This document shows, in pieces, positions 44,708 to 61,788 of a DNA stretch of 64,000 nt. Position 1 is the stretch's first letter; the number at the start of each line of letters is the position of its first letter. The DNA is from a virus (Duplodnaviria > Caudoviricetes), in IMG/VR virus record IMGVR_UViG_3300035190_000444, positions 1 through 64,000 of that record; one strand, written 5' to 3'. Position numbers and translations under genes: made by a program. The notes beneath the pieces were generated by a model, which worked only from the letters and a program-made list of their open reading frames with translations, was not told the DNA's origin and made no database searches.

Positions 44708-44714
44708 AAGTCAG

Positions 44715-44743: not shown

Positions 44744-44774
44744 TTATTAAATTAAATTAACTTATAAGTATAAT

Positions 44775-45035
44775 ATGAGCATTGAAATATCCCCAAAAGA
44801 CTATTGGAAAGCAATGTGCCGAGATGAAGCACAGATGTATTGTTTATTCTTAGTAATAGACGGCAAGAAAGGATGGCGATTCCCTACTTATCGAGAATTA
44901 ATTGGACACGAGTCTACATATCATATAAGTATGTTAGGAGAATGGTATGAAGACGATTTAGTTGATACTAATTTATGCGATACTGACGATTTGTACTGTA
45001 TAGTACCAGTAAGGGATAGAAAAGATGACGATTGA
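44775..45035 (+). CDS. mini Lcl-C/DUF1566-like protein, paralogue 1
   Basis: DEAQMYC..GKKGWRFPT..PVRD. Confidence 0.75.
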   Translation: MSIEISPKDYWKAMCRDEAQMYCLFLVIDGKKGWRFPTYRELIGHESTYHISMLGEWYEDDLVDTNLCDTDDLYCIVPVRDRKDDD

Positions 45036-45276
45036 AATTTCACCAAGAGAAACATGGAAAAAACCACTTCCAAAAGATCAAGCACAAATGTATTGTTTAT
45101 TTTTTGAACACAACGGCAGAGGGTGGAGATTTCCTACTCTAGAAGAATGTCTAACTAACATGAGTGGAATTCCAACGATTGTTGGATGGTGTTGGAACAA
45201 AGAACGCATGGAAAGTGATGATTATAATACTGCAATTTGTGACGTAATTCTAGTTCGAGATGTTAAAAATGCATAA
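45025..45276 (+). CDS. mini Lcl-C/DUF1566-like protein, paralogue 2
   Basis: AQMYC..GWRFPTLEE..LVRD. Confidence 0.75.
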   Translation: MTIEISPRETWKKPLPKDQAQMYCLFFEHNGRGWRFPTLEECLTNMSGIPTIVGWCWNKERMESDDYNTAICDVILVRDVKNA

Positions 45277-45284
45277 ATAGTTTT

Positions 45285-45527
45285 ATGAAAATAGAAGAAC
45301 TTTTAAACGAACTAACCTTTCACGGCTCGCAATGCACTAAAGACTGTAGCGGACATCGCGCAGGATGGTCATGGGGTAAAAAGTATCCCAATCGTGCTAC
45401 TACTAACAGAGCTACTCATCAAAGTTTCAACAATGGTGTTGATATTGCTAATGCTAATACCAAAGTCGTTATGATGCCAAATGCACGTGGTGCAGGTGGT
45501 AAGTTTGTTAAGAAGCCTAAACCATAA
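45285..45527 (+). CDS. small protein with CTxDCSGH motif (MKIEELLNE start)
   Basis: CTKDCSGHRAGWSW; TAAATA just upstream. Confidence 0.65.
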   Translation: MKIEELLNELTFHGSQCTKDCSGHRAGWSWGKKYPNRATTNRATHQSFNNGVDIANANTKVVMMPNARGAGGKFVKKPKP

Positions 45528-45606
45528 AAGGCCCCGCTGTAAACTCTGCATTACACACATTTTCACACGAGTATAATTACATAAACATGTAATACGCTCA
45601 TACACA

Positions 45607-45635
45607 TTGACAACACACATATACACTTATATACT
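45607..45635 (+). promoter_or_regulatory. sigma70 promoter
   Basis: TTGACA-17-TATACT; a twin at 45946-45974 (TTGACA-17-TATAGT); both followed by ACGCATAAC. Confidence 0.65.
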
Positions 45636-45712
45636 ATACGCATAACACGTTATATGCAAATAGGCCCCGCTGTAACACATACACTAAATAATTTATCAAC
45701 CGGAGTAATACC

Positions 45713-45919
45713 ATGGAAACCATTTATACTGACAGAAGAATAGTAGAAACTGGATGTATGTTGTACATGCGGATAATATCAATCGATTCTAGCATTACTG
45801 TTTATGCTTTTAAACATGACGAGTTTCGTTGCGAGATGGAAATCTTTACTGGCGATAACTATACAGGTAACTTAGAAGAATGGTTGTTACTTCCTGTTAG
45901 TACAGCTGCATCGTACTAA
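45713..45919 (+). CDS. hypothetical protein (paralogue of 37271-37474)
   Basis: AFKH...RCEMEIF...EEWLLLP; GGAG RBS. Confidence 0.6.
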   Translation: METIYTDRRIVETGCMLYMRIISIDSSITVYAFKHDEFRCEMEIFTGDNYTGNLEEWLLLPVSTAASY

Positions 45920-46199
45920 AAGGCCCCGCTGTAACATAATAACACTTGACATACGTGTGCATATACTGTATAGTGTACGCATAACTACAGCAGGTGTCGC
46001 GCAAACTGTATTATCTATGCGCCCTATAACTGGACAGATGTATCACAGTGATGGAATTGTTGAACTGTAGCAACGACATAACCACCTACCCATTTGGATG
46101 AACATGAGATGTACCTTTACAAAACTCATTACAGGTTATGGCCCCGCTGTACACATAAGGTTAAAAGAAAGGATAACACCCTTACGACTGATTATATAG

Positions 46200-46442
46200 T
46201 TAGCATTGTATAATTAGTCCGCCGTCATATAAAAACCAGGACGGAGCTCGAGGTACCGGATGACCGCCTCTGTAATGCTCTAATGCTAAGACATGAAGAA
46301 ACTCAACAAATGTTCCATTGGCCTTTGCGGGCCAATATGACTTCTAAATCTAACAAAATATTCAAAGAAAGAAAATAAAATTATAATAATTGATATGAGT
46401 GCCAACGAATATAAAATTATTATAATTTAGGACTTTAGTCCT
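46200..46442 (+). other. structured non-coding element (ncRNA or origin-like; strand not established)
   Basis: Nested stems, a 7-bp hairpin and a 14-bp AT-rich inverted repeat. Confidence 0.5.
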
Positions 46443-46463
46443 TTATACCTAATAGGAGAAATT

Positions 46464-46682
46464 ATGATTGAACTAGCACCACTATCTGATTATAAGATGT
46501 CATATGACGAAGCTTGGTTGTACTGTGCTACTCTAACTCATAATAACAAATATGATTGGCGTATTCCAACTGATTACGAGTTTACATACAACGACGAAAT
46601 TGATGAAGAATCCTTTGATCAATCAGACGAACCACGTCCTAGCCATTGGCGTGTACAACCAGTGAGAACTAAAGATGCTTGA
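46464..46682 (+). CDS. mini Lcl-C/DUF1566-like protein, paralogue 3
   Basis: DEAWLYCATL..NKYDWRIPT..PVR. Confidence 0.75.
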   Translation: MIELAPLSDYKMSYDEAWLYCATLTHNNKYDWRIPTDYEFTYNDEIDEESFDQSDEPRPSHWRVQPVRTKDA

Positions 46683-46944
46683 GATTGCACCTATATTAAA
46701 TGAATATCTAAATTACGACGAAGCATGGCTATACTGCGCTACCTGTATACACGATAACAAATACGATTGGCGTATTCCAACTTATGACGAATATGAAGAT
46801 ATTGATGGAATTTCAATATCAGCATATGATGACTCGGATGAAGATGATTTTAGAGATAGCAATCTAAACAGCTTACCAACGGTAAAAAGTTTAAAATTCT
46901 TATCAATAAGAGTTGTACAACCAGTGAGGACTAAAGATGCTTGA
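46675..46944 (+). CDS. mini Lcl-C/DUF1566-like protein, paralogue 4
   Basis: DEAWLYC..KYDWRIPT..PVR. Confidence 0.75.
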   Translation: MLEIAPILNEYLNYDEAWLYCATCIHDNKYDWRIPTYDEYEDIDGISISAYDDSDEDDFRDSNLNSLPTVKSLKFLSIRVVQPVRTKDA

Positions 46945-47161
46945 GATTGCCCCAATGCCCGCCGGCCGGTTCTCATTTGATGATGCCTGGTTATATTGTG
47001 CTACACTAACATATAATAACAAGTATGACTGGCGCATACCAACTGAAGAAGAATTTTGTGATTACGAAGCAATTGATTGCGATGCGTTTGATCAGAATGA
47101 TGAAGGTCTTAAGATAGCTAAAGTAACACATAAAATATGTCCAGTGCGCACTGCTGATTAA
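46937..47161 (+). CDS. mini Lcl-C/DUF1566-like protein, paralogue 5
   Basis: DDAWLYC..KYDWRIPTEEE..PVR. Confidence 0.75.
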   Translation: MLEIAPMPAGRFSFDDAWLYCATLTYNNKYDWRIPTEEEFCDYEAIDCDAFDQNDEGLKIAKVTHKICPVRTAD

Positions 47162-47220
47162 AATACCATTTGTAAAGTCCTAAGTTTTGCGCTATAATAA
47201 TGTTTTATGTAAGGAGCCAT

Positions 47221-47511
47221 ATGCTAGTAGCCACTTGTCAATCAAAATTTATAACGTATGCCGAAGCTGTTATGTATTGTTTGTTTTTAGATCACCAAGG
47301 AAAGAAAGGCTGGCGGTTGCCAACTTTACTTGAATGGGCAGATACTGCAGATGGCAGACTTACAACTAATACATGGTATCGAGAGAGTACGAATGAAGAA
47401 CGAGCATTGCTTGCAAAACAATACAACCATACCCAGCAAGCTATAGAAGCTATGATTGAACCATATGAAAATCGTAAAACAGGTATAGCAGTTGCAGTGA
47501 GAGACAAATGA
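47221..47511 (+). CDS. mini Lcl-C/DUF1566-like protein, paralogue 6
   Basis: EAVMYC..GKKGWRLPT..AVRD. Confidence 0.75.
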   Translation: MLVATCQSKFITYAEAVMYCLFLDHQGKKGWRLPTLLEWADTADGRLTTNTWYRESTNEERALLAKQYNHTQQAIEAMIEPYENRKTGIAVAVRDK

Positions 47512-47735
47512 TAGAAATATTATCTAATCCACCTGGGATCAGTCGGAAATTATATAATCGCGATGCAGCTTTTTTGTATGTAATTACTCTAGTCCATGAT
47601 GGGCATGCAGACTGGCGATTTCCTACTCCAGACGAATGGGTTGAAGGTCCTTTAGCGTATATGGCATGGCATCAAGGAAGAATTGATAACGATAGATTTT
47701 TCAGCTATCACATATACCCAGTGAGAGATTTATGA
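47508..47735 (+). CDS. mini Lcl-C/DUF1566-like protein, paralogue 7
   Basis: GHADWRFPT..PVRD. Confidence 0.7.
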   Translation: MIEILSNPPGISRKLYNRDAAFLYVITLVHDGHADWRFPTPDEWVEGPLAYMAWHQGRIDNDRFFSYHIYPVRDL

Positions 47736-48031
47736 AATATCATAAACCATTAAGTGTACATTATCTACCAGTAGATCCAAATCCTAACAGGATGTCTTTA
47801 CATGAAGCAGTTATGTATTGTACATTCTTAGAGTTTGAAGGAAAGAAAGGATGGCGATTACCCACTAGTAGTGAAGTAGATGAGATTTATGCTCTCAGAG
47901 AAGCAACTCGGTGTAATTCGTTTATATACAAACCAAAGTATGTGTGGACACAAGATGATTTAGACAATCCGTCATCACACGATCCTCACAATCGCGGACG
48001 TGTATTGGCAGTAAGGACTAAGCATGATTGA
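47732..48031 (+). CDS. mini Lcl-C/DUF1566-like protein, paralogue 8
   Basis: EAVMYC..GKKGWRLPT..YVWT..AVR. Confidence 0.75.
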   Translation: MKYHKPLSVHYLPVDPNPNRMSLHEAVMYCTFLEFEGKKGWRLPTSSEVDEIYALREATRCNSFIYKPKYVWTQDDLDNPSSHDPHNRGRVLAVRTKHD

Positions 48032-48275
48032 GCATGCAAACGAATCGCCGCACAAGATAACATGTGACGAATCATGGTTGTACTGTGCTACCCTAACTCA
48101 TAATAACAAGTATGATTGGAGGATGCCAACATATGACGAACGAATGAAATTAGAATTCTTTGATACATGGGATATAGTTGACTATATTGGTAGGCCTAAC
48201 GCTGCGTGGTTAAACTATAATGCAACCTGTTTTATTATACCAGTGAGGGATATAAATGAAAAAAACAAAGTATAA
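48024..48275 (+). CDS. mini Lcl-C/DUF1566-like protein, paralogue 9
   Basis: WLYCATL..KYDWRMPT..PVRD. Confidence 0.75.
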   Translation: MIEHANESPHKITCDESWLYCATLTHNNKYDWRMPTYDERMKLEFFDTWDIVDYIGRPNAAWLNYNATCFIIPVRDINEKNKV

Positions 48276-48609
48276 ATCAGCTGAAGAAAAGCGTAAAGCA
48301 TTAGAAGCTGAGAAGCAATGGTTAGCTATGGCAAAGCAACACGGATTATCTACCAAACCATCTAGTTCTAAATCTCTTAAAGACGCACTTAAGAAACAGT
48401 CATATACTCCGCCTGCACCAACATATAGAGGTAGTGATAGTAAACCTCCCAGTTTAGTTACAACTACTAAAGGTGGCGGCAGTCGTATTGAACCTCCTAA
48501 GTATACAGGTACTTTGATTAAAGGATGTGCGCAAATGCACAAAAGTAATTTAGTTCCTGTTATCAACCAAGAGCAAGCAACTGAGATTTCACGGATGCGT
48601 AGAGGATGA
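48256..48609 (+). CDS. basic hypothetical phage protein
   Basis: YTG...G..QMHKSNLVPV...ISRMRR. Confidence 0.65.
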   Translation: MKKTKYKSAEEKRKALEAEKQWLAMAKQHGLSTKPSSSKSLKDALKKQSYTPPAPTYRGSDSKPPSLVTTTKGGGSRIEPPKYTGTLIKGCAQMHKSNLVPVINQEQATEISRMRRG

Positions 48610-48815
48610 TAGAATTCGCCCCAACGTTCTTCCCTCAGCTAACATATGACGAAGCATGGGTATACTGTCTTATATTAGAACATAATGGGCACAAGGATTG
48701 GCGCATGCCAACTCATAAAGAATGGGCTAGCAGAAATGAATTACTTGGTTGGTATGAAAACGCAAAAACTGTAAAGAAGTTTCGAATTGTTTGTCCAGTA
48801 AGGGAACAAATATGA
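48606..48815 (+). CDS. mini Lcl-C/DUF1566-like protein, paralogue 10
   Basis: DEAWVYC..GHKDWRMPT..PVRE. Confidence 0.75.
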   Translation: MIEFAPTFFPQLTYDEAWVYCLILEHNGHKDWRMPTHKEWASRNELLGWYENAKTVKKFRIVCPVREQI

Positions 48816-49225
48816 AATGGTTTAACCGAATATTCAATTGTAATGTATATTTAAAATTTGACGTACCTACGAATCCTTATGGCGACAACAGAGTGCGTTA
48901 TGTTGTAGGAGTCCCGGTTAATCACTATGAGAAAAAAATCATTGAAATCGTTTATACTGGACTATTATGTTCTAGTGCTGATGAAGCAACGATGCATTTG
49001 TTTATGCTGAGTAAGCATGATGGAAAGAGAGGATGGCGACTACCTACAATGAATGAAGCTATATACTGTTCGAACCTATCAGTAATTAGACATTTCTCTG
49101 ATTGGAATTCACTCAGAGCTCCATTAGAATTAGTTTTAGTAAGAGATGTTACAGAAGATGAGTATAACTATTACAATGGACCTATAACACGTTTCTTTAA
49201 GCAGTTTGCGCAGTGGACTTATTGA
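48812..49225 (+). CDS. mini Lcl-C/DUF1566-like protein, paralogue 11 (N- and C-terminally extended)
   Basis: DEA..GKRGWRLPT..LVRD. Confidence 0.7.
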   Translation: MKWFNRIFNCNVYLKFDVPTNPYGDNRVRYVVGVPVNHYEKKIIEIVYTGLLCSSADEATMHLFMLSKHDGKRGWRLPTMNEAIYCSNLSVIRHFSDWNSLRAPLELVLVRDVTEDEYNYYNGPITRFFKQFAQWTY

Positions 49226-49256
49226 TAGCTAAATAGCAGACAATAAGGAGAGTGTT

Positions 49257-50336
49257 ATGTCAAAAGAAGAAGTAGGTACAGGTGTAAGCCAAGAAGAGTC
49301 AGTTACGCTTAATGGCGTAACAATAACAGAAGAATCACATGCTGATGTATATGCCGAAGCACACGCAGGTGCAAGTGCGGAAGTAACTGATACAAGCGCA
49401 TCAGCAGAAGCACACGCAGGTGCAAGTATTGGCGCAGAAGCCGGTGCAAGTGTTACAGTAGGTGATGTTACATTAGAAGCTGAAGCACACGCTACTGCAG
49501 AAGTTGAAGCTACTGCTGAAGCAAGTGCAGGATGGACAGGTACAGATGTAGTTGTTGAAGCTAGTGCAAGTGTTGAAGCTCGTGCTGAAGTTGGAGCAAG
49601 TGCATCAGTTGGTAATGAAGATGTTGGTACAGTTAGTGTTTCGGGTGGCGCGTATGCTGAAGCTCATGCCGGTGTTGAAGCCGAAGCATCAGTCGGGTTA
49701 CATGGCGCAGAAGGACACGCAGGAGCATCAGTAGGTGCAAGTGTTGGTGTAGAAGCTAATGCAGTAGCAGAAAGCCATGGCGTGTCTGCTGAAGCAGGTG
49801 CAGGTGTTAGCATTGGATTACAAGCCGGTGCAGAAGTTGGAGGTGGTGCAACTGTACACGGCAATACCGTTAGCATAGGTGTAGAAGGTGAAATAGAGTT
49901 ATTAGCTGGTGTAGAATTTAATGCTGAATTATCAGTTGATACTACTCCAGTTGTAGACGCAGTTGATCAAGCAGCATTAGAGTCAGCTCGTTTTGCGCAT
50001 GAGCAAGCGGAAATTGTTGCTAAAGAAGCTCAAGAAGCTGCCCGCATTGCTAATGAAGAAGCTAATCGTATTGCAAGAGAAGCTCAAGAACAAGCAGATC
50101 GTGCAGCTAGAGAAGCACTTGAGCAAGCACAACGCGCAGCTAGAGAAGCACAAGAAGCATCTGAAAGAGCAATTAGAGAAGCACAAGAAGCATCTGAACG
50201 AGCAACTAGAGCAGCACAAGAAGCCGCAGAAAGCGCAGCTAGAGAAGCAGATCGTGTAGCTAACGAAGCTAGAGAAGCAGCCAATCGCGCAGCAAATGAA
50301 ATGAATAAAGCACTTAAAAAAGTAAAGTTCTGGTAA
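49257..50336 (+). CDS. A/E/G/V-rich repeat protein with C-terminal 11-residue coiled coil
   Basis: AEAHAGAS repeats then AREAQE.S.RA repeats; AAGGAG RBS; TAAATA upstream. Confidence 0.8.
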   Translation: MSKEEVGTGVSQEESVTLNGVTITEESHADVYAEAHAGASAEVTDTSASAEAHAGASIGAEAGASVTVGDVTLEAEAHATAEVEATAEASAGWTGTDVVVEASASVEARAEVGASASVGNEDVGTVSVSGGAYAEAHAGVEAEASVGLHGAEGHAGASVGASVGVEANAVAESHGVSAEAGAGVSIGLQAGAEVGGGATVHGNTVSIGVEGEIELLAGVEFNAELSVDTTPVVDAVDQAALESARFAHEQAEIVAKEAQEAARIANEEANRIAREAQEQADRAAREALEQAQRAAREAQEASERAIREAQEASERATRAAQEAAESAAREADRVANEAREAANRAANEMNKALKKVKFW

Positions 50337-50443
50337 AAGGCCCCGCTGTAACATGTATAGAGTAAACTTTCAGTTGACAAATTGTAAAGTTTACTTTATA
50401 CTTTAATTTGTTTTAAACATTCACACAGTAAAAAGGAGAAGTT

Positions 50444-50704
50444 ATGCAAAAAATTATCTTATCTGCACTTCAATCTGGTGCAAAGACTCCAATAGAACTT
50501 TATGACCTGTGTAGATGTGATCCATATGATTTTGCAAGGATGCTAACTGATTTAGCAGATTCTGAAAAGATCGAACGACGCATTATCATTCCTAATCATG
50601 ATCAAATATACCGCTCACTAACATTAATCCCTAATAATGTAATTGACGGATTGCCTTGGGACGCTATTCGGATAGAATACCGTTTGACAAATAAAACACA
50701 CTAA
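50444..50704 (+). CDS. possible winged-helix protein
   Basis: ILSALQSGAKTPIELY...L.DL....KIER. Confidence 0.5.
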   Translation: MQKIILSALQSGAKTPIELYDLCRCDPYDFARMLTDLADSEKIERRIIIPNHDQIYRSLTLIPNNVIDGLPWDAIRIEYRLTNKTH

Positions 50705-50742
50705 TATATAATAAACACTTTACAACAACACAAGGAGTTACA

Positions 50743-50958
50743 ATGCTAATTGGAACAAATCCGCAAGGAGATAATGTAATGGTTATTGATGATATGATTT
50801 TAAATTATTCATATTGGGATTGTGATTGCTCACATGCATATCTAAGATCAGTAAAACAACACCATTGCAATGAATGTGGAGCAGATAGAGATGACAGCGA
50901 AGTATCTCAAGAAGCAGAAGTACAACTTTTTATCTATAACCATACCTCACAGGAGTAA
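50743..50958 (+). CDS. small zinc-ribbon-like protein
   Basis: WDCDC...CNECG. Confidence 0.55.
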   Translation: MLIGTNPQGDNVMVIDDMILNYSYWDCDCSHAYLRSVKQHHCNECGADRDDSEVSQEAEVQLFIYNHTSQE

Positions 50959-50960
50959 CT

Positions 50961-52007: not shown

Positions 52008-52076
52008 ATAACTGCTTGCACATCCGCGTGTAGTTTGTTATAATATGTTTTTACTTACTAACACGCGGAGCTTACA

Positions 52077-52781: not shown

Positions 52782-52788
52782 GATTATT

Positions 52789-53001
52789 ATGATTGAATCA
52801 GGAATAGGTTCTGATCATTTTCTAACATACGATGAAGCCTGGCTCTTTTGTATCACTACTACTCTCTACAATAAGTATGATTGGAGAATGATGACACGAC
52901 GTGAGTTTATAGAGTATAAACCAAGAGAAAAATGGTTCGAAGTCACCGGCGTGTCGCATTTAATAGCCCAGGTACTACCAGTGAGAGATGTAAATGATTA
53001 G
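52789..53001 (+). CDS. mini Lcl-C/DUF1566-like protein, paralogue 12
   Basis: DEAWLFC..KYDWRMMT..PVRD. Confidence 0.7.
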   Translation: MIESGIGSDHFLTYDEAWLFCITTTLYNKYDWRMMTRREFIEYKPREKWFEVTGVSHLIAQVLPVRDVND

Positions 53002-53245
53002 AAGAGATTTAGCTTACAATACACACTTAGAATACTTAGATTATTCTAACTATAAAATGGATTGGGACAGCGCATGGTTATACTGTGCTACCTGTACATA
53101 TAAAGACATGTATGATTGGCGAATGCTTACTCCATATGAATTTCGTAATGATCCATACATACACAGCTGGCATGCCGCTTCACGGAAGAATAACTTTCCA
53201 GCATTTGTATTACCAGTTCGAGATAGAGGCCCCGCTGTAACATGA
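52994..53245 (+). CDS. mini Lcl-C/DUF1566-like protein, paralogue 13
   Basis: AWLYCAT..YDWRMLT..PVRD. Confidence 0.7.
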   Translation: MIRRDLAYNTHLEYLDYSNYKMDWDSAWLYCATCTYKDMYDWRMLTPYEFRNDPYIHSWHAASRKNNFPAFVLPVRDRGPAVT

Positions 53246-53460
53246 GAATAGAAATATCACCAACAACTAATAAAGAATTTACATACGATGAAGCAATAAT
53301 GTACTGCTTTTTTCTTATTATAGACGGCAAAAAAGGATGGAGACTACCTACAAGAGAAGAATATAATTCTTCTGTCAAAATATGGGGATGGCATCAAGAT
53401 GATGATAGATCATCAACATCTGATCTTTTCAAAGTAACCCCAGTGCGGGACTCTGACTAA
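53242..53460 (+). CDS. mini Lcl-C/DUF1566-like protein, paralogue 14
   Basis: DEAIMYC..GKKGWRLPT..PVRD. Confidence 0.75.
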   Translation: MRIEISPTTNKEFTYDEAIMYCFFLIIDGKKGWRLPTREEYNSSVKIWGWHQDDDRSSTSDLFKVTPVRDSD

Positions 53461-53533
53461 ATTATCATTTGCTTACCAATAAATATTTTGCTATAATATA
53501 TTTTTATTTACAAACCTTACGGAGTACATAACT

Positions 53534-53740
53534 ATGGCACACGTAGAACATGGACCAAGATCCGAAAACAAAATGACTTATGATGAAGCAATAATGTATT
53601 GCTTCTGGTTCACTCACAATGGCAAGAAAGGATGGCGTCTTCCAACCTTTCATGAATTTCTAGACGGGAACTCGTGGTATAAGGATGCTGAGATTACTAA
53701 ACGCAAGTGGTACGTAAAACCTGTGAGGGACATAAAATGA
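53534..53740 (+). CDS. mini Lcl-C/DUF1566-like protein, paralogue 15
   Basis: DEAIMYC..GKKGWRLPT..PVRD. Confidence 0.75.
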   Translation: MAHVEHGPRSENKMTYDEAIMYCFWFTHNGKKGWRLPTFHEFLDGNSWYKDAEITKRKWYVKPVRDIK

Positions 53741-54054
53741 ACTTTGAAATAGCACCACGCGACAAATGGTTAGCAGAAACTCCTTACGACCAAGGAGCAA
53801 TGTATTGTTTATTCCTTGAAATTGATGGAAAGAAAGGATGGCGATTGCCAACTAATGAAGAAGCTGACATGTTAGTAAACACAGTAGATCCGGGTAATGA
53901 TTTTGAGAATCCCGAAGTCCTTCCAGAGTTAGAGGAGTTTAATTCCTATTGGTTTGATGCTGATCATTGGGGGTTTTGGACACACGAAGATACAGTTGAC
54001 GACTATGATCTTGACGAATTGTTTACTGCAATTCCAGTAAGGGACATAATATGA
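53737..54054 (+). CDS. mini Lcl-C/DUF1566-like protein, paralogue 16
   Basis: MNFEIAP..AMYC..GWRLPT..FWT..PVRD. Confidence 0.75.
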   Translation: MNFEIAPRDKWLAETPYDQGAMYCLFLEIDGKKGWRLPTNEEADMLVNTVDPGNDFENPEVLPELEEFNSYWFDADHWGFWTHEDTVDDYDLDELFTAIPVRDII

Positions 54055-54344
54055 ACTTTGAAATAGCACCAAAAACAACGGAGATACAAGCCACGTGGGA
54101 TGAAGCAGTTATGTATTGTTTTTTTCTTGAAATAGATGGAAAGAAAGGATGGAGACTGCCTACTAAAGAGGAATTAGATTATATCTACCATTCAAAAAAT
54201 GATTTCATTGATGCCTACTACTGGTCCTCTACTGAGTACAATGGCAGCAGCGCCTGGGGTCAGGTTTTCACCAGTGGCACCCAGTTCAGCTCCAGTAAGA
54301 ACGGCGGCAGCTACTACGTTAGAGCAATAAGGGACATAATATGA
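54051..54344 (+). CDS. Lcl-C/DUF1566 C-type-lectin-fold protein, paralogue 17; probable DGR target
   Basis: WDEA..YC..WRLPTKEEL..YYWSSTE...AW...F..G......K.....YVRAIR. Confidence 0.85.
   Translation: MNFEIAPKTTEIQATWDEAVMYCFFLEIDGKKGWRLPTKEELDYIYHSKNDFIDAYYWSSTEYNGSSAWGQVFTSGTQFSSSKNGGSYYVRAIRDII
54210..54335 (+). repeat. candidate DGR variable repeat (VR)
   Basis: 22 of 36 codons end in C and none in A (54210-54317); no template repeat seen in the window. Confidence 0.65.
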
Positions 54345-54418
54345 ACTTTGAAGTCGCACCTAACGGTGCTCGAACTGATAATTGCCATATGCAAAACTTA
54401 ACTGGAGAACTACGATGA
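54341..54418 (+). pseudogene. truncated start of another mini-lectin paralogue
   Basis: MNFEVAP then diverges and stops after 25 aa. Confidence 0.5.
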
Positions 54419-54891
54419 GAAAATCCCTATCACATAAAGAAATCCTAATACTAAAACTCAATAATCTTTTAGCTACTTCTGAATCACTCGAAGACAAACT
54501 TGTAACCGAGAATAATCAATGGCAATGCCGTGCAACAGTCCTACGCAGCGATATTCAAAATTTGATTGACTATGTAGAATGGTCGGTAGAAGAGAATAGT
54601 ATGAATATTGAAATAGCACCAAAATCTGCCGAGGAGTCATGTAGTTGGGATACTGCACGAACATATTGTTTATTTCTTAACTTTGATGAAAAAACTGATT
54701 GGAGACTTCCAACAAAAGAAGAACTAAATCAAATCTATGAATCAGATAATGATTTTCGTAGTGGTCGATACTGGGCTTCTAATGAACAAAGTGTAGATAC
54801 TGCTTGGAGTCAGAGTTTTGAAAATGGTAGCAGATACCCTAACTTTAAGTTCCACGGTGGCCTCTACGTTAGACCAGTAAGGGACTTATGA
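54415..54891 (+). CDS. Lcl-C/DUF1566 protein, paralogue 18 (62-aa leader fused to the domain starting at 54601)
   Basis: MNIEIAP..WD.A..YC..DWRLPTKEEL..YWAS.E...AW...F..G...YVRPVRD. Confidence 0.8.
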   Translation: MRKSLSHKEILILKLNNLLATSESLEDKLVTENNQWQCRATVLRSDIQNLIDYVEWSVEENSMNIEIAPKSAEESCSWDTARTYCLFLNFDEKTDWRLPTKEELNQIYESDNDFRSGRYWASNEQSVDTAWSQSFENGSRYPNFKFHGGLYVRPVRDL

Positions 54892-55133
54892 TTATTGATT
54901 ATATGATTGATCGTGCTCCGCCACGTATAGTAAACAACTATGAAGAGGCTTGGCTGTATTGCCTTACCTGTAATCATGATGGGCATAATGATTGGAGGTT
55001 ACCTACGGTAGACGAATGGCAATATTCGTCTACAACCTCAATGCCTTTAGAAGCTTATTATGAAAACAATTATTTCTTTAAAGTTGAACCGGCTATGCAG
55101 AATAAGGCAGTTCCGGTACGTGAAGTAAAATAG
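54888..55133 (+). CDS. mini Lcl-C/DUF1566-like protein, paralogue 19
   Basis: EEAWLYC..GHNDWRLPT..PVRE. Confidence 0.75.
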   Translation: MIIDYMIDRAPPRIVNNYEEAWLYCLTCNHDGHNDWRLPTVDEWQYSSTTSMPLEAYYENNYFFKVEPAMQNKAVPVREVK

Positions 55134-55220
55134 TCTTTACAAATCAACAAATAATTGTTATACTATATTTTTTTAAACACTACAGCAAGCAAGGCCCCGC
55201 TGTATATACAGGAGAATAAC

Positions 55221-55808
55221 ATGGCAACACGTAGCGCAATTGGTTATATGAGAAACGATGGTACTGTTCGGGCAGTGTACGTGCATTGGGACGGTTACTT
55301 ATCACATGTTGGTAAAACACTTATTGAGAACTATGACTTAATTGGTGTAGGCGATTTATGTGATTTAGGTGACATAAGCTCATTAGGCGAAACAATTGAA
55401 GATACTGAGTTTTACGGACGCGATCGCAACGAAGATGATATTGAAGCACATGAGTTTGCATCTGAACATGAGTTTGTAGATTGGTATGATGATTCTGAGT
55501 TTTTCTATTTAATAAAAGATGACACATGGTATGTGTCAGAACATTGCGCAGAGTTCTTGTTACTTGCAGATCGTTTAAAAGCTACAAAAGTTGAGTATAC
55601 CGATTATATTCGCCCAGATGAAACAACAACATCCTACAGTGCAAGAGATGCAGTAGTAGCAATGGTAGCTGATGGTGTAGTTGAACCAGTGTATATGATT
55701 AAGTTGTTACTTGATCGCATTGATCCAGAAACATTAGAAGAACTGTTGAAAGAAGAATTCAACATTGACGATATGATTCCAGAATGTTACTTTGAGGAGA
55801 ACGAATAA
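55221..55808 (+). CDS. hypothetical phage protein (MATRSAIG...YVHWDGY)
   Basis: AGGAG RBS before MATRS. Confidence 0.7.
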   Translation: MATRSAIGYMRNDGTVRAVYVHWDGYLSHVGKTLIENYDLIGVGDLCDLGDISSLGETIEDTEFYGRDRNEDDIEAHEFASEHEFVDWYDDSEFFYLIKDDTWYVSEHCAEFLLLADRLKATKVEYTDYIRPDETTTSYSARDAVVAMVADGVVEPVYMIKLLLDRIDPETLEELLKEEFNIDDMIPECYFEENE

Positions 55809-56068
55809 TGGCAGACGCTAAAGTTAAAAAGCCAGTTGTAAAGAAACGTATTGTAGAAGTTGACAACTACAAGATTCGTATTGCCGAAACAGACTTACCT
55901 CACAATGGTAAAGTAACATTAGATGGACCTCATATGCAAGAACGTGGTCCTAATTTAGAACTTATCGTATACGCAACTGCTAACAGTGACACATATGAAC
56001 CAGGTAGGCGATATGCGTGTTTCTATACACTAAAAGGTAAACGTACTGGATATTTTACAATCAATTAG
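55808..56068 (+). CDS. hypothetical protein
   Basis: Coupled ORF. Confidence 0.6.
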   Translation: MADAKVKKPVVKKRIVEVDNYKIRIAETDLPHNGKVTLDGPHMQERGPNLELIVYATANSDTYEPGRRYACFYTLKGKRTGYFTIN

Positions 56069-56218
56069 GAGGCCCTGTGCTCAAGAGCGAAGTATTTGAA
56101 AACAATGTAATTAAGGCACTTGAAGATTACATAAATTACAACAATCAGATAACTCCTCTTAGTGAGGATTTCTTTCATCGGATTGAAGCACTGAAACAAA
56201 AAGCACAGGAGTTACAGA

Positions 56219-56452
56219 ATGAAGCTAACAAATCATGATATGATTTTAGTTGCCTTACAACCATATAAAGGCCAAGAACTATCGTATGCCAAGATAAAAG
56301 AATTAGTGTCGGCAAGATTTCCTGATTTTAACTTAGGTAGTCTCCAGCCAAATGATCATTCTCAACTTGGTAACAAGAATTGTTGCAGATGTGTAGGTTC
56401 AAATCGGCAGCTATTTATTAATCGAGGTCGTGCCACCTATCAAGTTTTATAG
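56219..56452 (+). CDS. hypothetical protein
   Basis: AGGAG RBS. Confidence 0.6.
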   Translation: MKLTNHDMILVALQPYKGQELSYAKIKELVSARFPDFNLGSLQPNDHSQLGNKNCCRCVGSNRQLFINRGRATYQVL

Positions 56453-56459
56453 GACTAAC

Positions 56460-56804
56460 ATGAAAATTACATTTGCAGGTTTAAAGACAACTGGTAAAGT
56501 AGATACCGTTTGGGTTGTTATTGAGTTAGGTAAACATCGACAACAAGAATGGTATTCTGATTATGTAATTGCCTGGGGCAGACGAGGCGGCAAGTTGCAA
56601 TCTATGACTCGATTAGGATATTATCCACCATCGTTAGACTATAACTCTGATCGTTACAGTAGGTTTAGTACTATTGGCAAACTAATCAATAAGAAACTTA
56701 ACAAAGAGTATGAAAGTATCGATGAAACTCGGTTAGCTGAAGTATATCCAGAGTTTAAACAAGATTTAGATAAACTTGCATTTTGGGAAACATTGAAACT
56801 ATGA
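56460..56804 (+). CDS. WGR-like protein, copy 1
   Basis: WGRRGGKLQ...KKLNKEY...VYPEF. Confidence 0.6.
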   Translation: MKITFAGLKTTGKVDTVWVVIELGKHRQQEWYSDYVIAWGRRGGKLQSMTRLGYYPPSLDYNSDRYSRFSTIGKLINKKLNKEYESIDETRLAEVYPEFKQDLDKLAFWETLKL

Positions 56805-57214
56805 ACATAACATTTGCAAGTTTAAAGACAACTGGAAAAGTTGATACTGTGTGGGCAGTAATTAGTATGGGACAGCCATCTGACAAATCATTATTAACAC
56901 GATTTTCCTCAATTAAGTTTACTGACTATATCATTGTGTGGGGTAAGCGTGGTGGCAAGCTAAGATCTATTAGAGTAATGAATGATTATGTGTCAACAGT
57001 AAGCGACCGTGCATACGAAATCAAAGAGAAAGGTATCCCAACTCGGGCTAGTTGGATTGTAAGAACTGGGTATTGCGGTGAAGCAATACAACGTATTCAC
57101 AAAAAGCTAAAAGCCGGTTACCGTCCAGTTAGAGCTGAGAACTTAGCTGATGTATATCCTGAGTTTGAAAAAGACTTAGCGAAGATTAACTTTTGGGAAC
57201 AATTTAAAACATGA
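56801..57214 (+). CDS. WGR-like protein, copy 2
   Basis: WGKRGGKLR...KKLKAGY...VYPEF. Confidence 0.6.
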   Translation: MNITFASLKTTGKVDTVWAVISMGQPSDKSLLTRFSSIKFTDYIIVWGKRGGKLRSIRVMNDYVSTVSDRAYEIKEKGIPTRASWIVRTGYCGEAIQRIHKKLKAGYRPVRAENLADVYPEFEKDLAKINFWEQFKT

Positions 57215-57827
57215 GTAACAAACCATTTGCACACCAGTAAGTAATTTGCTATAATATATTTTTAGTTAAACAACATTAGGAGTACATTATGTCAGTTAAA
57301 GTTAATGTAAGTGAGACCCGATCTAAACACACATTTCCGTGTATTGGGCTTGATGAATATGGTTCAGTAATCTTATTTTTAAGCCATAACAGATGCGGCA
57401 CTCACCCATTAAAGGGATTTGCGTTGCAACTTGGCAAAAATGCGCCGTCGTATCACAGAATAGGCGCACCATTATACTGGAAAACAATGACTCCTATTAA
57501 TGGAGGTAGCATAACGATCAATAATGAAATATTTGGAAGTGATAGCAACAATAGTAAAGACAAATGGAAGTATCCGTGTCTTGTAGAATTAACAGACGGC
57601 TCAATTGTACTGTTTAACGGATTTAGAGTTGGAACATTATTAAAACCTGGAAAATATCGAGGAGACTTGTATATGGGATATGATCGTAATGGGTATCCAG
57701 ACGGGCGCCAACCCTATTGGCCATGGGATTATAAATTATTTAATGGGTCAGTTACTATTACAAATGAGTAACAAACCATTTGCACACCAGTAAGTAATTT
57801 GCTATAATATATTTTTAGTTAAACAAC
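57211..57827 (+). repeat. 64-bp perfect direct repeat (promoter cassette) at 57211-57274 and 57764-57827
   Basis: ATGAGTAACAAACCATTTGCACACCAGTAAGTAATTTGCTATAATATATTTTTAGTTAAACAAC twice. Confidence 0.95.
57289..57771 (+). CDS. hypothetical protein with internal duplication
   Basis: Two (F/Y)PC...GS(V/I)(I/V)LF...GS(I/V)TI.NE units. Confidence 0.65.
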   Translation: MSVKVNVSETRSKHTFPCIGLDEYGSVILFLSHNRCGTHPLKGFALQLGKNAPSYHRIGAPLYWKTMTPINGGSITINNEIFGSDSNNSKDKWKYPCLVELTDGSIVLFNGFRVGTLLKPGKYRGDLYMGYDRNGYPDGRQPYWPWDYKLFNGSVTITNE

Positions 57828-57840
57828 TGCGGAGCACATT

Positions 57841-58014
57841 ATGGACCAAATACAACAATTTGAAGTAGACCAAATCACAGCAAGCCTTGCAGCTCAAGGC
57901 GTTACTAATTTTACAATGAAACGTGGTAACAACTGTGTTTGGGTTTCACATGGTAGAGTAGATTCTTACTACATTTTTCGCGATGAGAAATTAGTTGATG
58001 TGCAAATTGACTAA
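57841..58014 (+). CDS. small hypothetical protein (57 aa)
   Basis: Not in track; GGAG RBS after promoter; MDQIQQFEV...VDVQID. Confidence 0.6.
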   Translation: MDQIQQFEVDQITASLAAQGVTNFTMKRGNNCVWVSHGRVDSYYIFRDEKLVDVQID

Positions 58015-58021
58015 ACTTAAT

Positions 58022-58231
58022 ATGGCAGTAGGTATTAAATCACCTCAACGGATGCCATATGATGAAGCATTTCTTTATTGTATGACATCTAACGAGAATG
58101 GATACAAAGATTGGCGGTTACCATTTGAACACGAAACTAGAGACTTAACAACTTTACTCATTTGGTGTAATGAAGATATTTTTAAAGATACTGACCATCA
58201 ATATTATGCGATCCCAGTAAGAACGGTTTAA
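58022..58231 (+). CDS. mini Lcl-C/DUF1566-like protein, paralogue 20
   Basis: DEAFLYC..GYKDWRLP..PVR. Confidence 0.75.
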   Translation: MAVGIKSPQRMPYDEAFLYCMTSNENGYKDWRLPFEHETRDLTTLLIWCNEDIFKDTDHQYYAIPVRTV

Positions 58232-58302
58232 AAACCATTTGCAATCCAGCTTACACTTTGTTATAATATATTTTTACTTACACAACATTAGGAGCGTACA
58301 AC

Positions 58303-58725
58303 ATGGCTTATGTATCAAAAGAAGATAAAGACTCAAAAGCACCACGCTTAAGAGCATTGGCTAAACAATATGGGTTGACTGCTACAGTAGCAGTTCGCCA
58401 TCACAGCACCTTGCAGTTGAATGTATCAAAAGGTAAGATTGATTTCATTACTAATCATGCAGATCGTGTAGCAGAACTTAATCATTGGTCAGCTGACAAA
58501 GAAAAAGACTACAATCAAAATAAAGATCGCAAGTATATGCAAGTGTCGCATCACTGGACTGATCACTTTGATGGCAAAGCTAAAGAGTTTTTAGATAAAG
58601 CATTTGAGATCATGTTGGAAGGGTACTATAATAATAGCGACGCGATGATTGATTATTTTGATACTGCGTTCTATGTTGACATCAATATTGGCAAATGGGA
58701 TCGTCCCTATACCGTTACAGCTTAA
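58303..58725 (+). CDS. hypothetical phage early protein
   Basis: VRHHSTL, NNSDAMIDYFD..FY...IGKW..PY. Confidence 0.65.
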   Translation: MAYVSKEDKDSKAPRLRALAKQYGLTATVAVRHHSTLQLNVSKGKIDFITNHADRVAELNHWSADKEKDYNQNKDRKYMQVSHHWTDHFDGKAKEFLDKAFEIMLEGYYNNSDAMIDYFDTAFYVDINIGKWDRPYTVTA

Positions 58726-58739
58726 GAGGAGATTAGACA

Positions 58740-58979
58740 ATGGCAATTACAGTAACAACAAATCAAACAGAGTCTGTTGAAAAAATTAAGTATCCAATAC
58801 TCGGAATTTTCCCAAATGGTACTATTGTTTTGTTTTCTTCTGAAACGTCTAGCACTATCTTGAAAGGAGAATCAAAAGACTATATAGGTCTTGATTGGAA
58901 TCTCCAAAAAAACCGTTATATGCCCAATACCTGGGTGCCTTACCATGGCACTATAACATTATCTAATGAGACCTTATGA
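58740..58979 (+). CDS. hypothetical protein, single-unit paralogue of 57289-57771
   Basis: YPIL...GTIVLF...GTITLSNE. Confidence 0.6.
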   Translation: MAITVTTNQTESVEKIKYPILGIFPNGTIVLFSSETSSTILKGESKDYIGLDWNLQKNRYMPNTWVPYHGTITLSNETL

Positions 58980-59191
58980 ACGATTTTAATTTTGATTTAG
59001 ACAAGATGAAAGCTGCTGTTGAGTCCGGACGCGCTTCAATTCCTAAAGAAGCCTTAGAGAGTTTTGAGGCATTTGATAAATGGTTAAATGAGGACAACGA
59101 ACATGTTGTAAAAAAAGTTTGCGATCAAAAAGTAAACGGTGTTTGTCCATTACATAATCTATTTTGTCAATATCCTGAATGTGAGAACTAA
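58976..59191 (+). CDS. hypothetical protein with C-terminal Cys motif
   Basis: C....G.CPLHN..C.YP.C. Confidence 0.55.
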   Translation: MNDFNFDLDKMKAAVESGRASIPKEALESFEAFDKWLNEDNEHVVKKVCDQKVNGVCPLHNLFCQYPECEN

Positions 59192-59195
59192 CACG

Positions 59196-59411
59196 ATGTT
59201 AGAATTTAAATTAATCGGCTCTGTTCTTACTGTCATTGAACGACTTTATTCTTTTACCGAAACTCGTACTAGCTTTTGGTACTATAATATTGATACATGG
59301 TGTAAAAATCGTAACGGTAAAGAAAACGAACCAATGGATTTTCAATGCGACCAAGGCACTATTGACTGGGTGAGAAAATACTACTTCCCAAAAGTTGGAT
59401 TAACAAGTTAA
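59196..59411 (+). CDS. hypothetical protein
   Basis: Start MLEFK. Confidence 0.55.
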   Translation: MLEFKLIGSVLTVIERLYSFTETRTSFWYYNIDTWCKNRNGKENEPMDFQCDQGTIDWVRKYYFPKVGLTS

Positions 59412-59426
59412 CCTGAGGACCAAATA

Positions 59427-59654
59427 ATGAACAAACAAATTAGAGATTTTGCAATAGAAGCCGGCTATGAGCCATATACTCCAACTGCAGAGGCGTTTAA
59501 CGAATTTAGAATTGAGAAATTCGCTAATTTGATTATTAGTGAAGCATTGCGTATTTGCGACGAAGTATCAGAACCAGTTGATGAAGACGACCCTATGGTA
59601 AAAGGTGCGATTGTGTGTGCTGAAATGATTAGAGAAAACTTTGGTGTATCATGA
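59427..59654 (+). CDS. hypothetical phage protein (EKFA.LI..E motif)
   Basis: GAGGA RBS. Confidence 0.6.
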   Translation: MNKQIRDFAIEAGYEPYTPTAEAFNEFRIEKFANLIISEALRICDEVSEPVDEDDPMVKGAIVCAEMIRENFGVS

Positions 59655-59734
59655 TAGATCCGATAGTTTGGCTATTACTATTTTTATTCACAAAACACTT
59701 TATTGTTGACTTTCCATTACAAGGAGAAATATAA
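59651..59734 (+). pseudogene. truncated DUF3307-like N-terminus
   Basis: LLLFLFTKHFIVDFPLQ followed by a stop. Confidence 0.45.
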
Positions 59735-60009
59735 TGACATATACCGTAGAAAGAGTTGAAACACCAGACGGAATTTTTTACACATCACGTAAAGATAATA
59801 GAACTTCTGATGAAGTAGTAGCACATGGTATCGAAGGCTACAACAACGGCAGTCGTAGTCCGATATACGAGAGTCTTAATCGACATAGAACTTGTACAGT
59901 ATTGCAAGTATCAACTGGTTTAGATAAAATCTCTGCTGATGCTCTTAAAAAGAAATGCATCATCGATGCAAGAACAAATGGCGAACCTGTACTTAATGTA
60001 AGATTGTAA
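59734..60009 (+). CDS. hypothetical protein
   Basis: AAGGAG RBS. Confidence 0.55.
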   Translation: MTYTVERVETPDGIFYTSRKDNRTSDEVVAHGIEGYNNGSRSPIYESLNRHRTCTVLQVSTGLDKISADALKKKCIIDARTNGEPVLNVRL

Positions 60010-60134
60010 TTATAGCGTCACACTCGCAACAACACTTGTCTTTTGATGAGGCATGATTTGAGAGTAAATTATCACTTGTATAACCATCTAAAGTTTGCTA
60101 TAATATATTTTTACACACAACATGGAATTAACAA

Positions 60135-60512
60135 ATGAAAATCTCACGATTTAGCAAACAACGATTAGAAACATTATTTAAGACTGAGCATGTATCGGAA
60201 GAGTACTCGCTTCCATTGTTTAACTATCTGGTACATGGATTTAAACCTGGCAGTTTTTGGGAAAGTGTGTTAGCTAATGATTTTTTAGGTGCGATGATGT
60301 CTAGCCATCCAAGTAATCAAATTGTACATCTCAAGTATGCATCTATTTGGATCTATCATCGTGCTCCAGATGTAGCATTTGGTAGTTACGAGAAAGTAGA
60401 CAATTGGTTAAAGCTATCGGAAGATGAGCGCAGAACTATTTTAGAAGAGTGTGAGTTAATCTATACATCAAAAGAAGACACTTGGTTAGCACTTACTGAA
60501 GTTGAGCAATAA
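60135..60512 (+). CDS. hypothetical phage protein
   Basis: YLVHGFKPGSF...VLAND...A...GS. Confidence 0.65.
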   Translation: MKISRFSKQRLETLFKTEHVSEEYSLPLFNYLVHGFKPGSFWESVLANDFLGAMMSSHPSNQIVHLKYASIWIYHRAPDVAFGSYEKVDNWLKLSEDERRTILEECELIYTSKEDTWLALTEVEQ

Positions 60513-60578
60513 ATATCTTTACAATCCAATAGCAATTTGCTATAATATGTTTTTAGTTAAACAACTGCGGAGCACATT

Positions 60579-60770
60579 ATGTTATCAAAAGTTATTAGTA
60601 AAACTAACTGGGAATTGTTACGCAACCAAAAAGAATGGTTGTGGAATCAGGGATCCGATGAAGCAATGGGACTTGCTCATTACTTAGATGCTATCCAAGA
60701 CGCGGCAGTTGAAGATGGTATTGCTTCTAAGTTAGAAGTGTTTGGAGAGTTAACAGATGAGCAGATATAG
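60579..60770 (+). CDS. hypothetical protein
   Basis: Promoter plus GGAG RBS. Confidence 0.6.
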   Translation: MLSKVISKTNWELLRNQKEWLWNQGSDEAMGLAHYLDAIQDAAVEDGIASKLEVFGELTDEQI

Positions 60771-60993
60771 AATCTTAGAAAAACCAACATATGATTATTC
60801 CGGCGAGCTTTCTGTGGAATATTTTCCACAGTATAAATTGTGGGGATTGTTTTGGGTAGGCATAGACAATGATACCGGTCATGCTTCGTCATATTTTGAA
60901 AATACTGCTCGTGAGACAATAAAAGCTCACAAAGCAAGAAAGGTTGCAAAGCATCGTAAAGTTAGGATTATTGAGGTAGCAGATGATGATTGA
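60757..60993 (+). CDS. hypothetical protein
   Basis: YRI.E...YFPQYK. Confidence 0.55.
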   Translation: MSRYRILEKPTYDYSGELSVEYFPQYKLWGLFWVGIDNDTGHASSYFENTARETIKAHKARKVAKHRKVRIIEVADDD

Positions 60994-61312
60994 AATTGGC
61001 CCACAACTTTTTCAAATAATGCACGAACTGATTATATCAGTATCGGCATTACTAATTTTGTATGGTTTGTATCGCCTAACTGACAAAGTGTTAGAGCGAA
61101 TAATGTGAGAGCAGATCGCTATTTAATGTATCGCCAAACAGGCATTAAGTTCACTAATGCAGAAAAAGCACGATTGGCGCAACTTAAAAATAAAGATCGT
61201 AAGAATAATGGAATGTGGTATGCACCAGCTGGTACACGACGTAATTAGTTCTTTACAAATCAACAGCATTTTGCTATAATATATTTTTACTTAAACAACA
61301 AAGGAGCGCGTT

Positions 61313-61528
61313 ATGCCTACTGTTACTGTTACTGATGAAAAGTTAATTGAAATGTTTAGCGAAGCTAAAATCCTTGTACAAGGTGATGACTCCTATGTAA
61401 TTGATTTTGCAGATGCTGAAGAGATCCATGTACATCACGAAGACACTGGCGAGGAGTTTGTATTGTCATATGACGACATTGATCTTGAACATGACTTAGT
61501 ATATGGCTTAACTCTTTTAAATAGATGA
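61313..61528 (+). CDS. acidic hypothetical protein
   Basis: Promoter plus AAGGAG RBS. Confidence 0.6.
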   Translation: MPTVTVTDEKLIEMFSEAKILVQGDDSYVIDFADAEEIHVHHEDTGEEFVLSYDDIDLEHDLVYGLTLLNR

Positions 61529-61788
61529 TTAAGTACGCAGACAATTTGACCACTGAACCTTTTCGAAAAGGTTCATTTAAACCCAAACACAAGATGTCTC
61601 TTGACGAAGCAGTAATGTTTGTTACGTTTTATGAGGAAGACGGCATTAAAGGTTGGCGTCTTCCAACAGAACAAGAGTCTATAAACAACCCAGACCTTAT
61701 AGGTTGTTGGCATCAAGAAGATTTAAACACCAGCTGGCCACCCGATGAGCATTACTATGTACGTCCAGTTAAGGACATTACTCCTTAG
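61525..61788 (+). CDS. mini Lcl-C/DUF1566-like protein, paralogue 21
   Basis: DEAVMF..GIKGWRLPT..YYVRPVKD. Confidence 0.75.
   Translation: MIKYADNLTTEPFRKGSFKPKHKMSLDEAVMFVTFYEEDGIKGWRLPTEQESINNPDLIGCWHQEDLNTSWPPDEHYYVRPVKDITP

Follow-up and report, generated by a model that had tools for sequence, protein, structure and literature searches.

Diversity-generating retroelements (DGRs) act on variable proteins of C-type-lectin fold, among them Mtd and TvpA. In the parts of the DGR literature consulted, such proteins join a constant scaffold to a variable C-terminal binding region, and DUF1566, now the Pfam family Lcl_C (PF07603), is listed among the DGR target domains. Lcl's C-terminal domain is described, in the passages that treat it, as resembling C-type-lectin-like domains without disulfides and without Ca2+/carbohydrate motifs, and most of its conserved DUF1566 residues are core residues, among them the partners of an Arg338-Glu344 salt bridge (PMC11162425). 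Arrays of small paralogues are known from polyimmunity loci, tandem sets of distantly related SUKH immunity proteins that are proposed to neutralize many toxins, in a passage that mentions neither DUF1566 nor lectins (PMC3482391). Bacillus phage G carries about 35 zinc-ribbon copies, an expansion called unprecedented in the relevant section of a jumbo-phage survey, where no lectin-fold FGS domains are reported in jumbo phages (PMC7824862). Here we describe an array of 21 small, stand-alone genes of the Lcl_C/DUF1566 lineage at positions 44775–61788 of a phage of the class Caudoviricetes. The window, that is, the whole stretch of DNA analyzed, comprises 64,000 nucleotides, the first 64 kb of the 88,585-bp IMG/VR record IMGVR_UViG_3300035190_000444 (G000; CheckV completeness 25%). 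The best overall explanation, to which we give about an even chance of being right, is a germline repertoire of lectin-fold binders that would be transcribed from host-type promoters, remain cytoplasmic and each have a target of its own.

A sequence-only reading of this DNA had proposed 21 paralogues, mostly of 68–105 aa. All 21 proposed starts (44775 to 61525) open intact plus-strand open reading frames whose products align as one family, in which every copy has the W, R and E of the W-R-x-P-T..E motif, and at least 90% of copies have A19, P37, T38, V79 and R80; the length range holds for 19 of the 21, the exceptions being copy 11 (137 aa) and copy 18 (158 aa). The family proved larger than had been proposed. 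A profile was built from the 21 copies, so that their own matches are circular while those of other copies and of relatives are not, and with it the count suggested by that reading was extended across the genome and its relatives. It yielded 44 intact copies in the 88,585-bp record, all on the plus strand, those beyond the window lying at 64.6–65.9 kb and 79.2–83.9 kb of the record, 23 copies being additional to the 21 used for the profile. There were 49 matches in each of two complete IMG/VR relatives, G001 (372,016 bp) and G002 (372,173 bp), and 10, 23, 28 and 25 in four other IMG/VR fragments. The 44 copies have a median length of 75.5 aa and a median isoelectric point of 5.1, and each holds 0–4 cysteines with a single conserved Cys column.

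The assignment of these genes to Lcl_C/DUF1566 stood as a matter of lineage, with 10 of the 21 copies matching the Pfam model at E<=0.01, but as formal membership only for the genes at 54051 and 54415 (copies 17 and 18), which alone pass the gathering cut-off (34.9 bits; model length 117; 20 of the 21 copies scanned singly). Twelve copies fall below the cut-off at 13.8–24.3 bits, matching model positions of about 18–84, with the small copies mostly at about 20–56; six of the 20 singly scanned copies have no Lcl_C match at E<=0.1, and copy 21 has none at E<=0.01. The 19 sub-threshold copies are tied to the family by 33–47% identity to copies 17 and 18 and by the shared profile. Because their Lcl_C matches are partial and below the cut-off, as against the full-length matches of copies 17 and 18, the small proteins (65–100 aa) are truncated Lcl_C derivatives, in which helix 1, the WRLPT strand and helix 2 are retained along with the final strand. 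Thus copies 17 and 18 are full-length members and all copies share the W-R...E core, whereas 19 of 21 differ from Lcl in that their sub-threshold matches reach over roughly the first third of the model and no further. NCBIfam adhesin_Lcl matches two of the 21 copies, and a sequence-profile search of the PDB returned only chance-level matches, the best relevant one being the FGE-like part of OvoA (E 0.29).

Structure prediction points to a compact C-type-lectin-like fold derived from the Lcl_C/DUF1566 lineage. AlphaFold2 modeled copy 14 with a predicted local distance difference test (pLDDT) score of 94.3 and a predicted template modeling (pTM) score of 0.81, and copy 17 with 83.1 and 0.74. In Foldseek comparisons against the PDB, 16 of 20 among the matches listed for copy 14 and 41 of 41 among those listed for copy 17 are C-type-lectin-like or Link domains, and the best structural match among those listed is that of copy 14 to the vaccinia A33R C-type-lectin-like domain (template modeling score, TM, 0.69; root-mean-square deviation 3.0). 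Matches in BFVD comprise poxvirus OPG161, lectin-family proteins and a phage DUF1566 protein. The C-type-lectin fold that had been proposed is therefore favored by confident models and lectin-like nearest structures, although not by a significant Foldseek E-value. Poxvirus A33/OPG161 and the TSG-6 Link module, the nearest structures to the models (TM 0.69 and 0.52), are similar in size and lack a long-loop region; they differ in having no detectable sequence relation to the family and in belonging to eukaryotic viruses and animals, where they are membrane or extracellular proteins. The disulfide pairs of classical Ca2+-dependent C-type lectins are not conserved among the 21 aligned copies, where there is one Cys column. 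The family resembles Lcl, as its fold is described in the passages cited above, in having a (predicted) lectin-like fold without disulfides or Ca2+ motifs. It also shares with Lcl an R-to-E spacing of six: the invariant R and E lie six residues apart in all 21 copies and may, judged by spacing only, be equivalent to Arg338-Glu344. A homotrimer prediction for copy 14 scored 0.01 against a mark of 0.42 and counts neither for nor against oligomerization.

The variation within the family is concentrated in one segment. Over 861 paralogue pairs from 42 of the 44 copies (two were excluded as the motif was missing), median scaffold identity is 0.42 compared with 0.19 in shuffled sequences, whereas the loop between the E of WRxPT..E and the last strand (PVR) has a median identity of 0.15, against 0.15 when shuffled, and ranges from 16 to 54 aa across the 44 copies. 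This agrees with the earlier description of a shared motif frame with a highly variable WRLPT-to-PVR segment. Most of each protein is scaffold, composed of strand 1 (IEIAP), helix 1 (DEA..YC), the W-R-x-P-T..E motif and a final strand (PVRD), and this scaffold frames a single loop that differs in each paralogue. Reciprocal orthologues in G001 were found for 38 of the 44 copies, at 65–99% identity, and many loops are identical between the record and G001. Of 49 copies, 20 form reciprocal pairs between G001 and the more distant G002, with a median identity of 58%; in the 18 of these pairs that could be split, identity is 0.67 for the scaffold and has a median of 0.43 for the loop (up to 0.96), and five orthologous loops are 80–96% identical. 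Loop diversity is germline-encoded: unrelated between paralogues and kept between orthologues.

Selection and turnover are in keeping with long retention. The Nei-Gojobori ratio of non-synonymous to synonymous change (omega) relative to G001 is 0.25 over 38 orthologue pairs and 3098 codons, and splitting, feasible in 35 pairs, gives 0.21 in the scaffold and 0.34 in the loop, so that both parts are under purifying selection. Nearest paralogues within one genome are only 45–49% identical, and most duplications are therefore old. Accessory non-family genes of the same arm are 91.6% identical to G001 (46 of 67 found) and 56.4% to G002 (32 of 67 found); family divergence matches these figures, so that its pace is that of the accessory neighborhood and not faster. 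That the array is non-functional or selfish duplicated DNA we regard as the least probable explanation of all. Turnover of copies (six of the 44 have no G001 orthologue) and a start-only remnant after copy 17 (about 54336–54373) speak for it, but 44 of 44 frames are intact, which together with the omega of 0.25 also contradicts decay into pseudogenes, the outcome that the sequence-only reading had named as fatal to it; furthermore, the copies are old and have nevertheless been kept, and 20 of 49 remain reciprocal between G001 and G002 despite neighbor identity of about 56%. The remnant (54336–54373) consists of a repeated junction and first codons in a frame other than that of copy 18, and probably marks where a copy was lost or recombined.

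The earlier suggestion that the array was built by duplication and hypermutation survives in its first half only: duplication is retained, while the absence of RVT_1 from the three records, the unequal loops, their conservation between orthologues and a divergence no faster than that of non-family neighbors all run counter to hypermutation. A DGR, whether belonging to the phage or borrowed from its host, might still be imagined to rewrite the loops, since DUF1566 figures among listed DGR targets and one segment of copy 17 has an unusual composition. The 36 codons of 54210–54317 end in C 22 times, T eight times, G six times and A never, as compared with 34% A at third positions family-wide, and the segment is also unlike the rest of its gene; moreover, lake-metagenome contigs break near it. 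We consider this highly improbable. RVT_1 is missing from all three records (G000, G001 and G002), in a search that found it in three control genomes, and the direct repeats of the array are only paralogue scaffolds and gene junctions, at 60–93% identity. No second copy of the copy 17 segment that could serve as a template occurs in the 88.6-kb record, host genomes not having been searched, and the copy 17 loop is unchanged relative to its G001 orthologue (dN 0 and dS 0 over 47 codons); loop lengths of 16–54 aa and the family-wide loop omega of 0.34 argue in the same direction. The copy 17 segment has the look of a DGR-type target, either fossil or imported, and does not represent active diversification by the phage. 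The family is therefore like the DGR variable proteins in pairing a constant scaffold with a variable C-terminal binding region within the same domain family, as far as the DGR sources consulted describe them, and unlike DGR systems in having no reverse transcriptase and no template repeat, with diversity that lies across paralogues, varies in length and is stably inherited. The repertoire of 44–49 small Lcl_C/DUF1566-derived proteins, spread over about 40 kb of one genome arm, would instead have arisen through tandem duplications of old date, the replacement or shortening of loops and a slow turnover by birth and death, with no retroelement hypermutation.

The arrangement of the genes bears out the earlier claim of coupled runs, and that of sigma70 promoters as far as an enrichment of sigma70-like sites goes. 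Stop and start codons overlap by 4–11 nt in 12 of the 20 consecutive family pairs of the window, and overlap in 30 of the 43 neighboring pairs of the whole record, the conserved P-V-R-D codons lying within the 25 nt that precede the next start. Sigma70-like sites, which are consensus matches only, number 95 in 44000–62500 as against 70.5 +/- 8.1 in shuffled sequence, and nine of them match at least 11 of 12 positions, eight on the plus strand. A control region with tail and baseplate genes (10000–28500) has 72 sites against 70.4 +/- 8.4, three of them at 11 or more of 12. The T4-type late promoter word TATAAATA occurs five times against 11.4 expected, all within 10.7–42.6 kb and none in the array, which is too few to use. 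In the RNA libraries of one sample, contigs overlie portions of copies 6/7, 14, 15 and 17/18 at a depth of 2–5, with DNA carry-over possible, and give a weak hint that family genes are transcribed; only 12 and 10 of 30 bins in these libraries have any cover, so uncovered parts are uninformative. Host RNA polymerase would transcribe the coupled runs from the sigma70-type promoters, and the proteins would probably be made early.

As a separate observation, the sequence GGCCCCGCTGT occurs eight times in 45530–63615, always on the plus strand, against 0.18 expected, and several of these copies lie where genes end or a short way upstream of sigma70-like sites (45922 before 45946, 50339 before 50374). 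The motif may have a regulatory role in this arm.

The stand-alone nature of the genes, without fibre domains, was upheld, in that Pfam reports only Lcl_C, FGE-sulfatase and Fib_succ_major in the 21 copies and no other domain. The proposed lack of signal peptides was likewise upheld: in a crude Kyte-Doolittle scan of the 44 copies, no segment was as hydrophobic as a signal peptide or membrane helix, and the highest mean over 15 aa was 1.46. A competing explanation, less probable in our view although a real rival because every characterized relative is an adhesin, is an extracellular role as lectins or adhesins, in which the proteins would serve as virion decoration, as accessory receptor-binding heads or, released at lysis, as binders of host surface polysaccharides. 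Lcl, with which the family was founded, is a glycan-binding surface adhesin, and DUF1566 may act in carbohydrate recognition according to the passages concerned (PMC11162425); in NCBIfam the adhesins Lcl and FimD are matched, the long relatives found in a representative search are giant multi-repeat proteins, and tail-fibre and baseplate genes share the window. Against this, the copies have no signal-peptide-like segment, fibre or anchor domain, or conserved disulfide pair, they are encoded on the strand opposite to that of the structural genes, where sigma70-like sites are abundant, and some 45 different heads on one virion are hard to picture. The phage genes also differ from Lcl in lacking a collagen stalk and an export signal and in forming about 45 stand-alone genes.

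Under the explanation that we prefer, the proteins would stay in the cytoplasm, where each could bind a different host or competitor molecule for the purposes of takeover, counter-defense or immunity-like neutralization. This binder function is suggested by the architecture and by analogy with polyimmunity loci as outlined in the relevant passage (PMC3482391). The array is like those loci, by analogy only and to the extent that the passage describes them, in being tandem and composed of small, distantly related paralogues; it is unlike them in fold, in having no associated toxin genes, and in that the Pfam scan of the 21 copies found no SUKH domain. Several points weigh against the cytoplasmic binder explanation. 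Characterized relatives of the domain, in the parts of PMC11162425 concerned with Lcl, are extracellular adhesins or lectins, for which reason a cytoplasmic role would be unusual, and the evidence on signal peptides is a hydrophobicity scan alone. No Foldseek match reached E<=0.001, and all E-values exceeded 0.1. PADLOC models gave no credible match among the 21 copies, a weak orphan-methyltransferase match of one of them (E 0.004) being taken as chance. The RNA signal is shallow, is limited to contigs and stems from a single sample. Finally, the loops have no excess of non-synonymous change, and several are 80–96% conserved where neighbors are about 56% identical; since they are conserved between orthologues, they argue for stable targets better than for a fast arms race with defense systems. 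A still more specific version, in which each of about 45–50 paralogues neutralizes or redirects a different host or rival-phage protein as part of a hard-wired, antibody-like repertoire of intracellular binders, is a tentative proposal that we hold to be rather unlikely as a whole; such a repertoire would, in the same joint proposal, evolve by birth and death in the manner of natural killer (NK) receptor or major histocompatibility complex (MHC) families.

The copies of the window and the sigma70-like sites that precede their runs are collected in Table 1. Neighboring genes are small and mostly without an assigned family, the exceptions being a GP88-family gene and an HNH homing endonuclease (61778–62485, minus strand). 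In the middle of the array, 49257–50336 encodes a 359-aa Ala/Glu-rich protein without a Pfam family that contains a 33-nt periodic repeat (seven copies, 50043–50282). Two adjacent paralogues at 56430–57214, of 124 and 143 aa, form another small family of this arm; the segments that they have in common are ITFA-LKTTGKVDTVW, at the N terminus, and W-G-(R/K)-R-G-G-K-L. The stretch 61507–62150, which takes in copy 21 and some of the HNH homing endonuclease, is swapped for 435 other letters in two lake DNA runs, and this replacement is a population variant. The joints 46682>47019 and 54091>54663, by which copies would be deleted or fused, were considered as copy-number variants and not accepted, their sides being of 21 and 26 letters in one run.

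Table 1. Family copies and selected sigma70-like sites of the window. G001 orthologue, reciprocal match with percent identity; Lcl_C bits are from single-copy Pfam scans.
Feature	Positions	Strand	Description
Sigma70-like site	44715..44743	+	Upstream of copy 1; 10 of 12, TG extension
Copy 1	44775..45035	+	86 aa; no Pfam match at E<=0.1; G001 orthologue 65%
Copy 2	45025..45276	+	83 aa; start overlaps copy 1 stop by 11 nt; G001 orthologue 83%
Sigma70-like site	46399..46426	+	Upstream of copy 3; 10 of 12
Copy 3	46464..46682	+	72 aa, NNKYDWR subgroup; Lcl_C 16.9 bits (positions 20-54 of 117); G001 orthologue 90%
Copy 4	46675..46944	+	89 aa; no reciprocal G001 orthologue; gene junction 93% identical to next junction
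Copy 5	46937..47161	+	74 aa; Lcl_C 18.8 bits; G001 orthologue 93%
Sigma70-like site	47170..47198	+	Upstream of copy 6; 10 of 12
Copy 6	47221..47511	+	96 aa; weak FGE-sulfatase (E 0.0028) and Lcl_C (E 0.071); G001 orthologue 98%
Copy 7	47508..47735	+	75 aa; ATGA overlap with copy 6; G001 orthologue 91%
Copy 8	47732..48031	+	99 aa; Lcl_C 24.3 bits; no reciprocal G001 orthologue
Copy 9	48024..48275	+	83 aa; no reciprocal G001 orthologue
Copy 10	48606..48815	+	69 aa; Lcl_C 19.2 bits; no reciprocal G001 orthologue
Copy 11	48812..49225	+	137 aa, N- and C-terminal extensions; G001 orthologue 91%
Sigma70-like site	52017..52044	+	Upstream of GP88-family gene heading the run of copies 12-14; 10 of 12, TG extension
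Copy 12	52789..53001	+	70 aa, WRMMT variant; G001 orthologue 89%
Copy 13	52994..53245	+	83 aa; GGCCCCGCTGT motif in last codons; G001 orthologue 98%
Copy 14	53242..53460	+	72 aa; AlphaFold2-modeled, pLDDT 94.3, pTM 0.81
Copy 15	53534..53740	+	68 aa; G001 orthologue 96%; loop 81% identical to G002 orthologue
Copy 16	53737..54054	+	105 aa, 54-aa acidic loop; Lcl_C 21 bits
Copy 17	54051..54344	+	97 aa, full-length Lcl_C; 49.9 bits, model positions 20-117; AlphaFold2 pLDDT 83.1
Copy 18	54415..54891	+	158 aa, N-terminal extension and full-length Lcl_C; 55.6 bits, positions 12-117; G001 orthologue 98%
Copy 19	54888..55133	+	81 aa; Lcl_C 22.4 bits
Copy 20	58022..58231	+	69 aa, isolated, WRLPF variant; Lcl_C 22.6 bits; no reciprocal G001 orthologue
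Sigma70-like site	61252..61280	+	Upstream of two-gene run ending in copy 21; 11 of 12, TG extension
Copy 21	61525..61788	+	87 aa, isolated, PVK variant; G001 orthologue 80%

The phage of the window is a member of a clade of roughly 372-kb freshwater jumbo phages. Its ribonucleotide reductase is 91% identical to that of G002, and at least 85% of sampled words are present in 18 lake or freshwater DNA runs, 10 of which may be the source sample. G002 carries a full-length pmoC/amoC gene (G002:C1:249671-250387; PF04896, E 3.1e-122), which is absent from G001 and from the 88.6-kb record; this gene points to methane- or ammonia-oxidizing hosts for the clade, places the clade among the large freshwater pmoC phages and, as it is carried by a complete relative, makes a methane oxidizer the probable host. 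In the main text of PMC7674155 the words DUF1566, lectin and paralog do not occur. Among the cultured phages of INPHARED, no match was found by megablast with the array or by tblastn with a neighboring gene and with copy 14, and copy 17 gave five weak single matches; the family is therefore placed in no cultured phage. Cellular genomes scanned with copy 17 gave one weak match, in a Bacteroidales metagenome-assembled genome (40% identity over 40 residues), which offers no clue to host or origin. A location of the arrays inside long terminal repeats was abandoned because the 'terminal repeats' of G001 and G002 are mere assembly overlaps of 128 and 83 bp. Separately, the large subunit of the G001 ribonucleotide reductase (G001:C1:293703-296993) matches as two pieces in one 1099-aa open frame, a split that looks like an intein-type insertion absent from the 771-aa gene of the window.

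No published description of such arrays was found in the literature searched, supplementary tables aside. The closest precedent for scale is Bacillus phage G, which the survey section cited above presents as a large single-domain expansion in a giant phage; the present family is similar in kind, concerns a different domain and has more copies, exceeding the expansion of about 35 that was there called unprecedented (PMC7824862). Lectin-fold diversity is in this case stored in the germline, not generated by a retroelement. If each paralogue binds its own target, one genome would supply dozens of natural 70-residue binders on one scaffold, and such binders could be used to probe what a giant phage must control in its host. 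Were the antibody-like repertoire to prove true, it would constitute a third route to binder diversity in phages, besides DGRs and tail-fibre cassettes.

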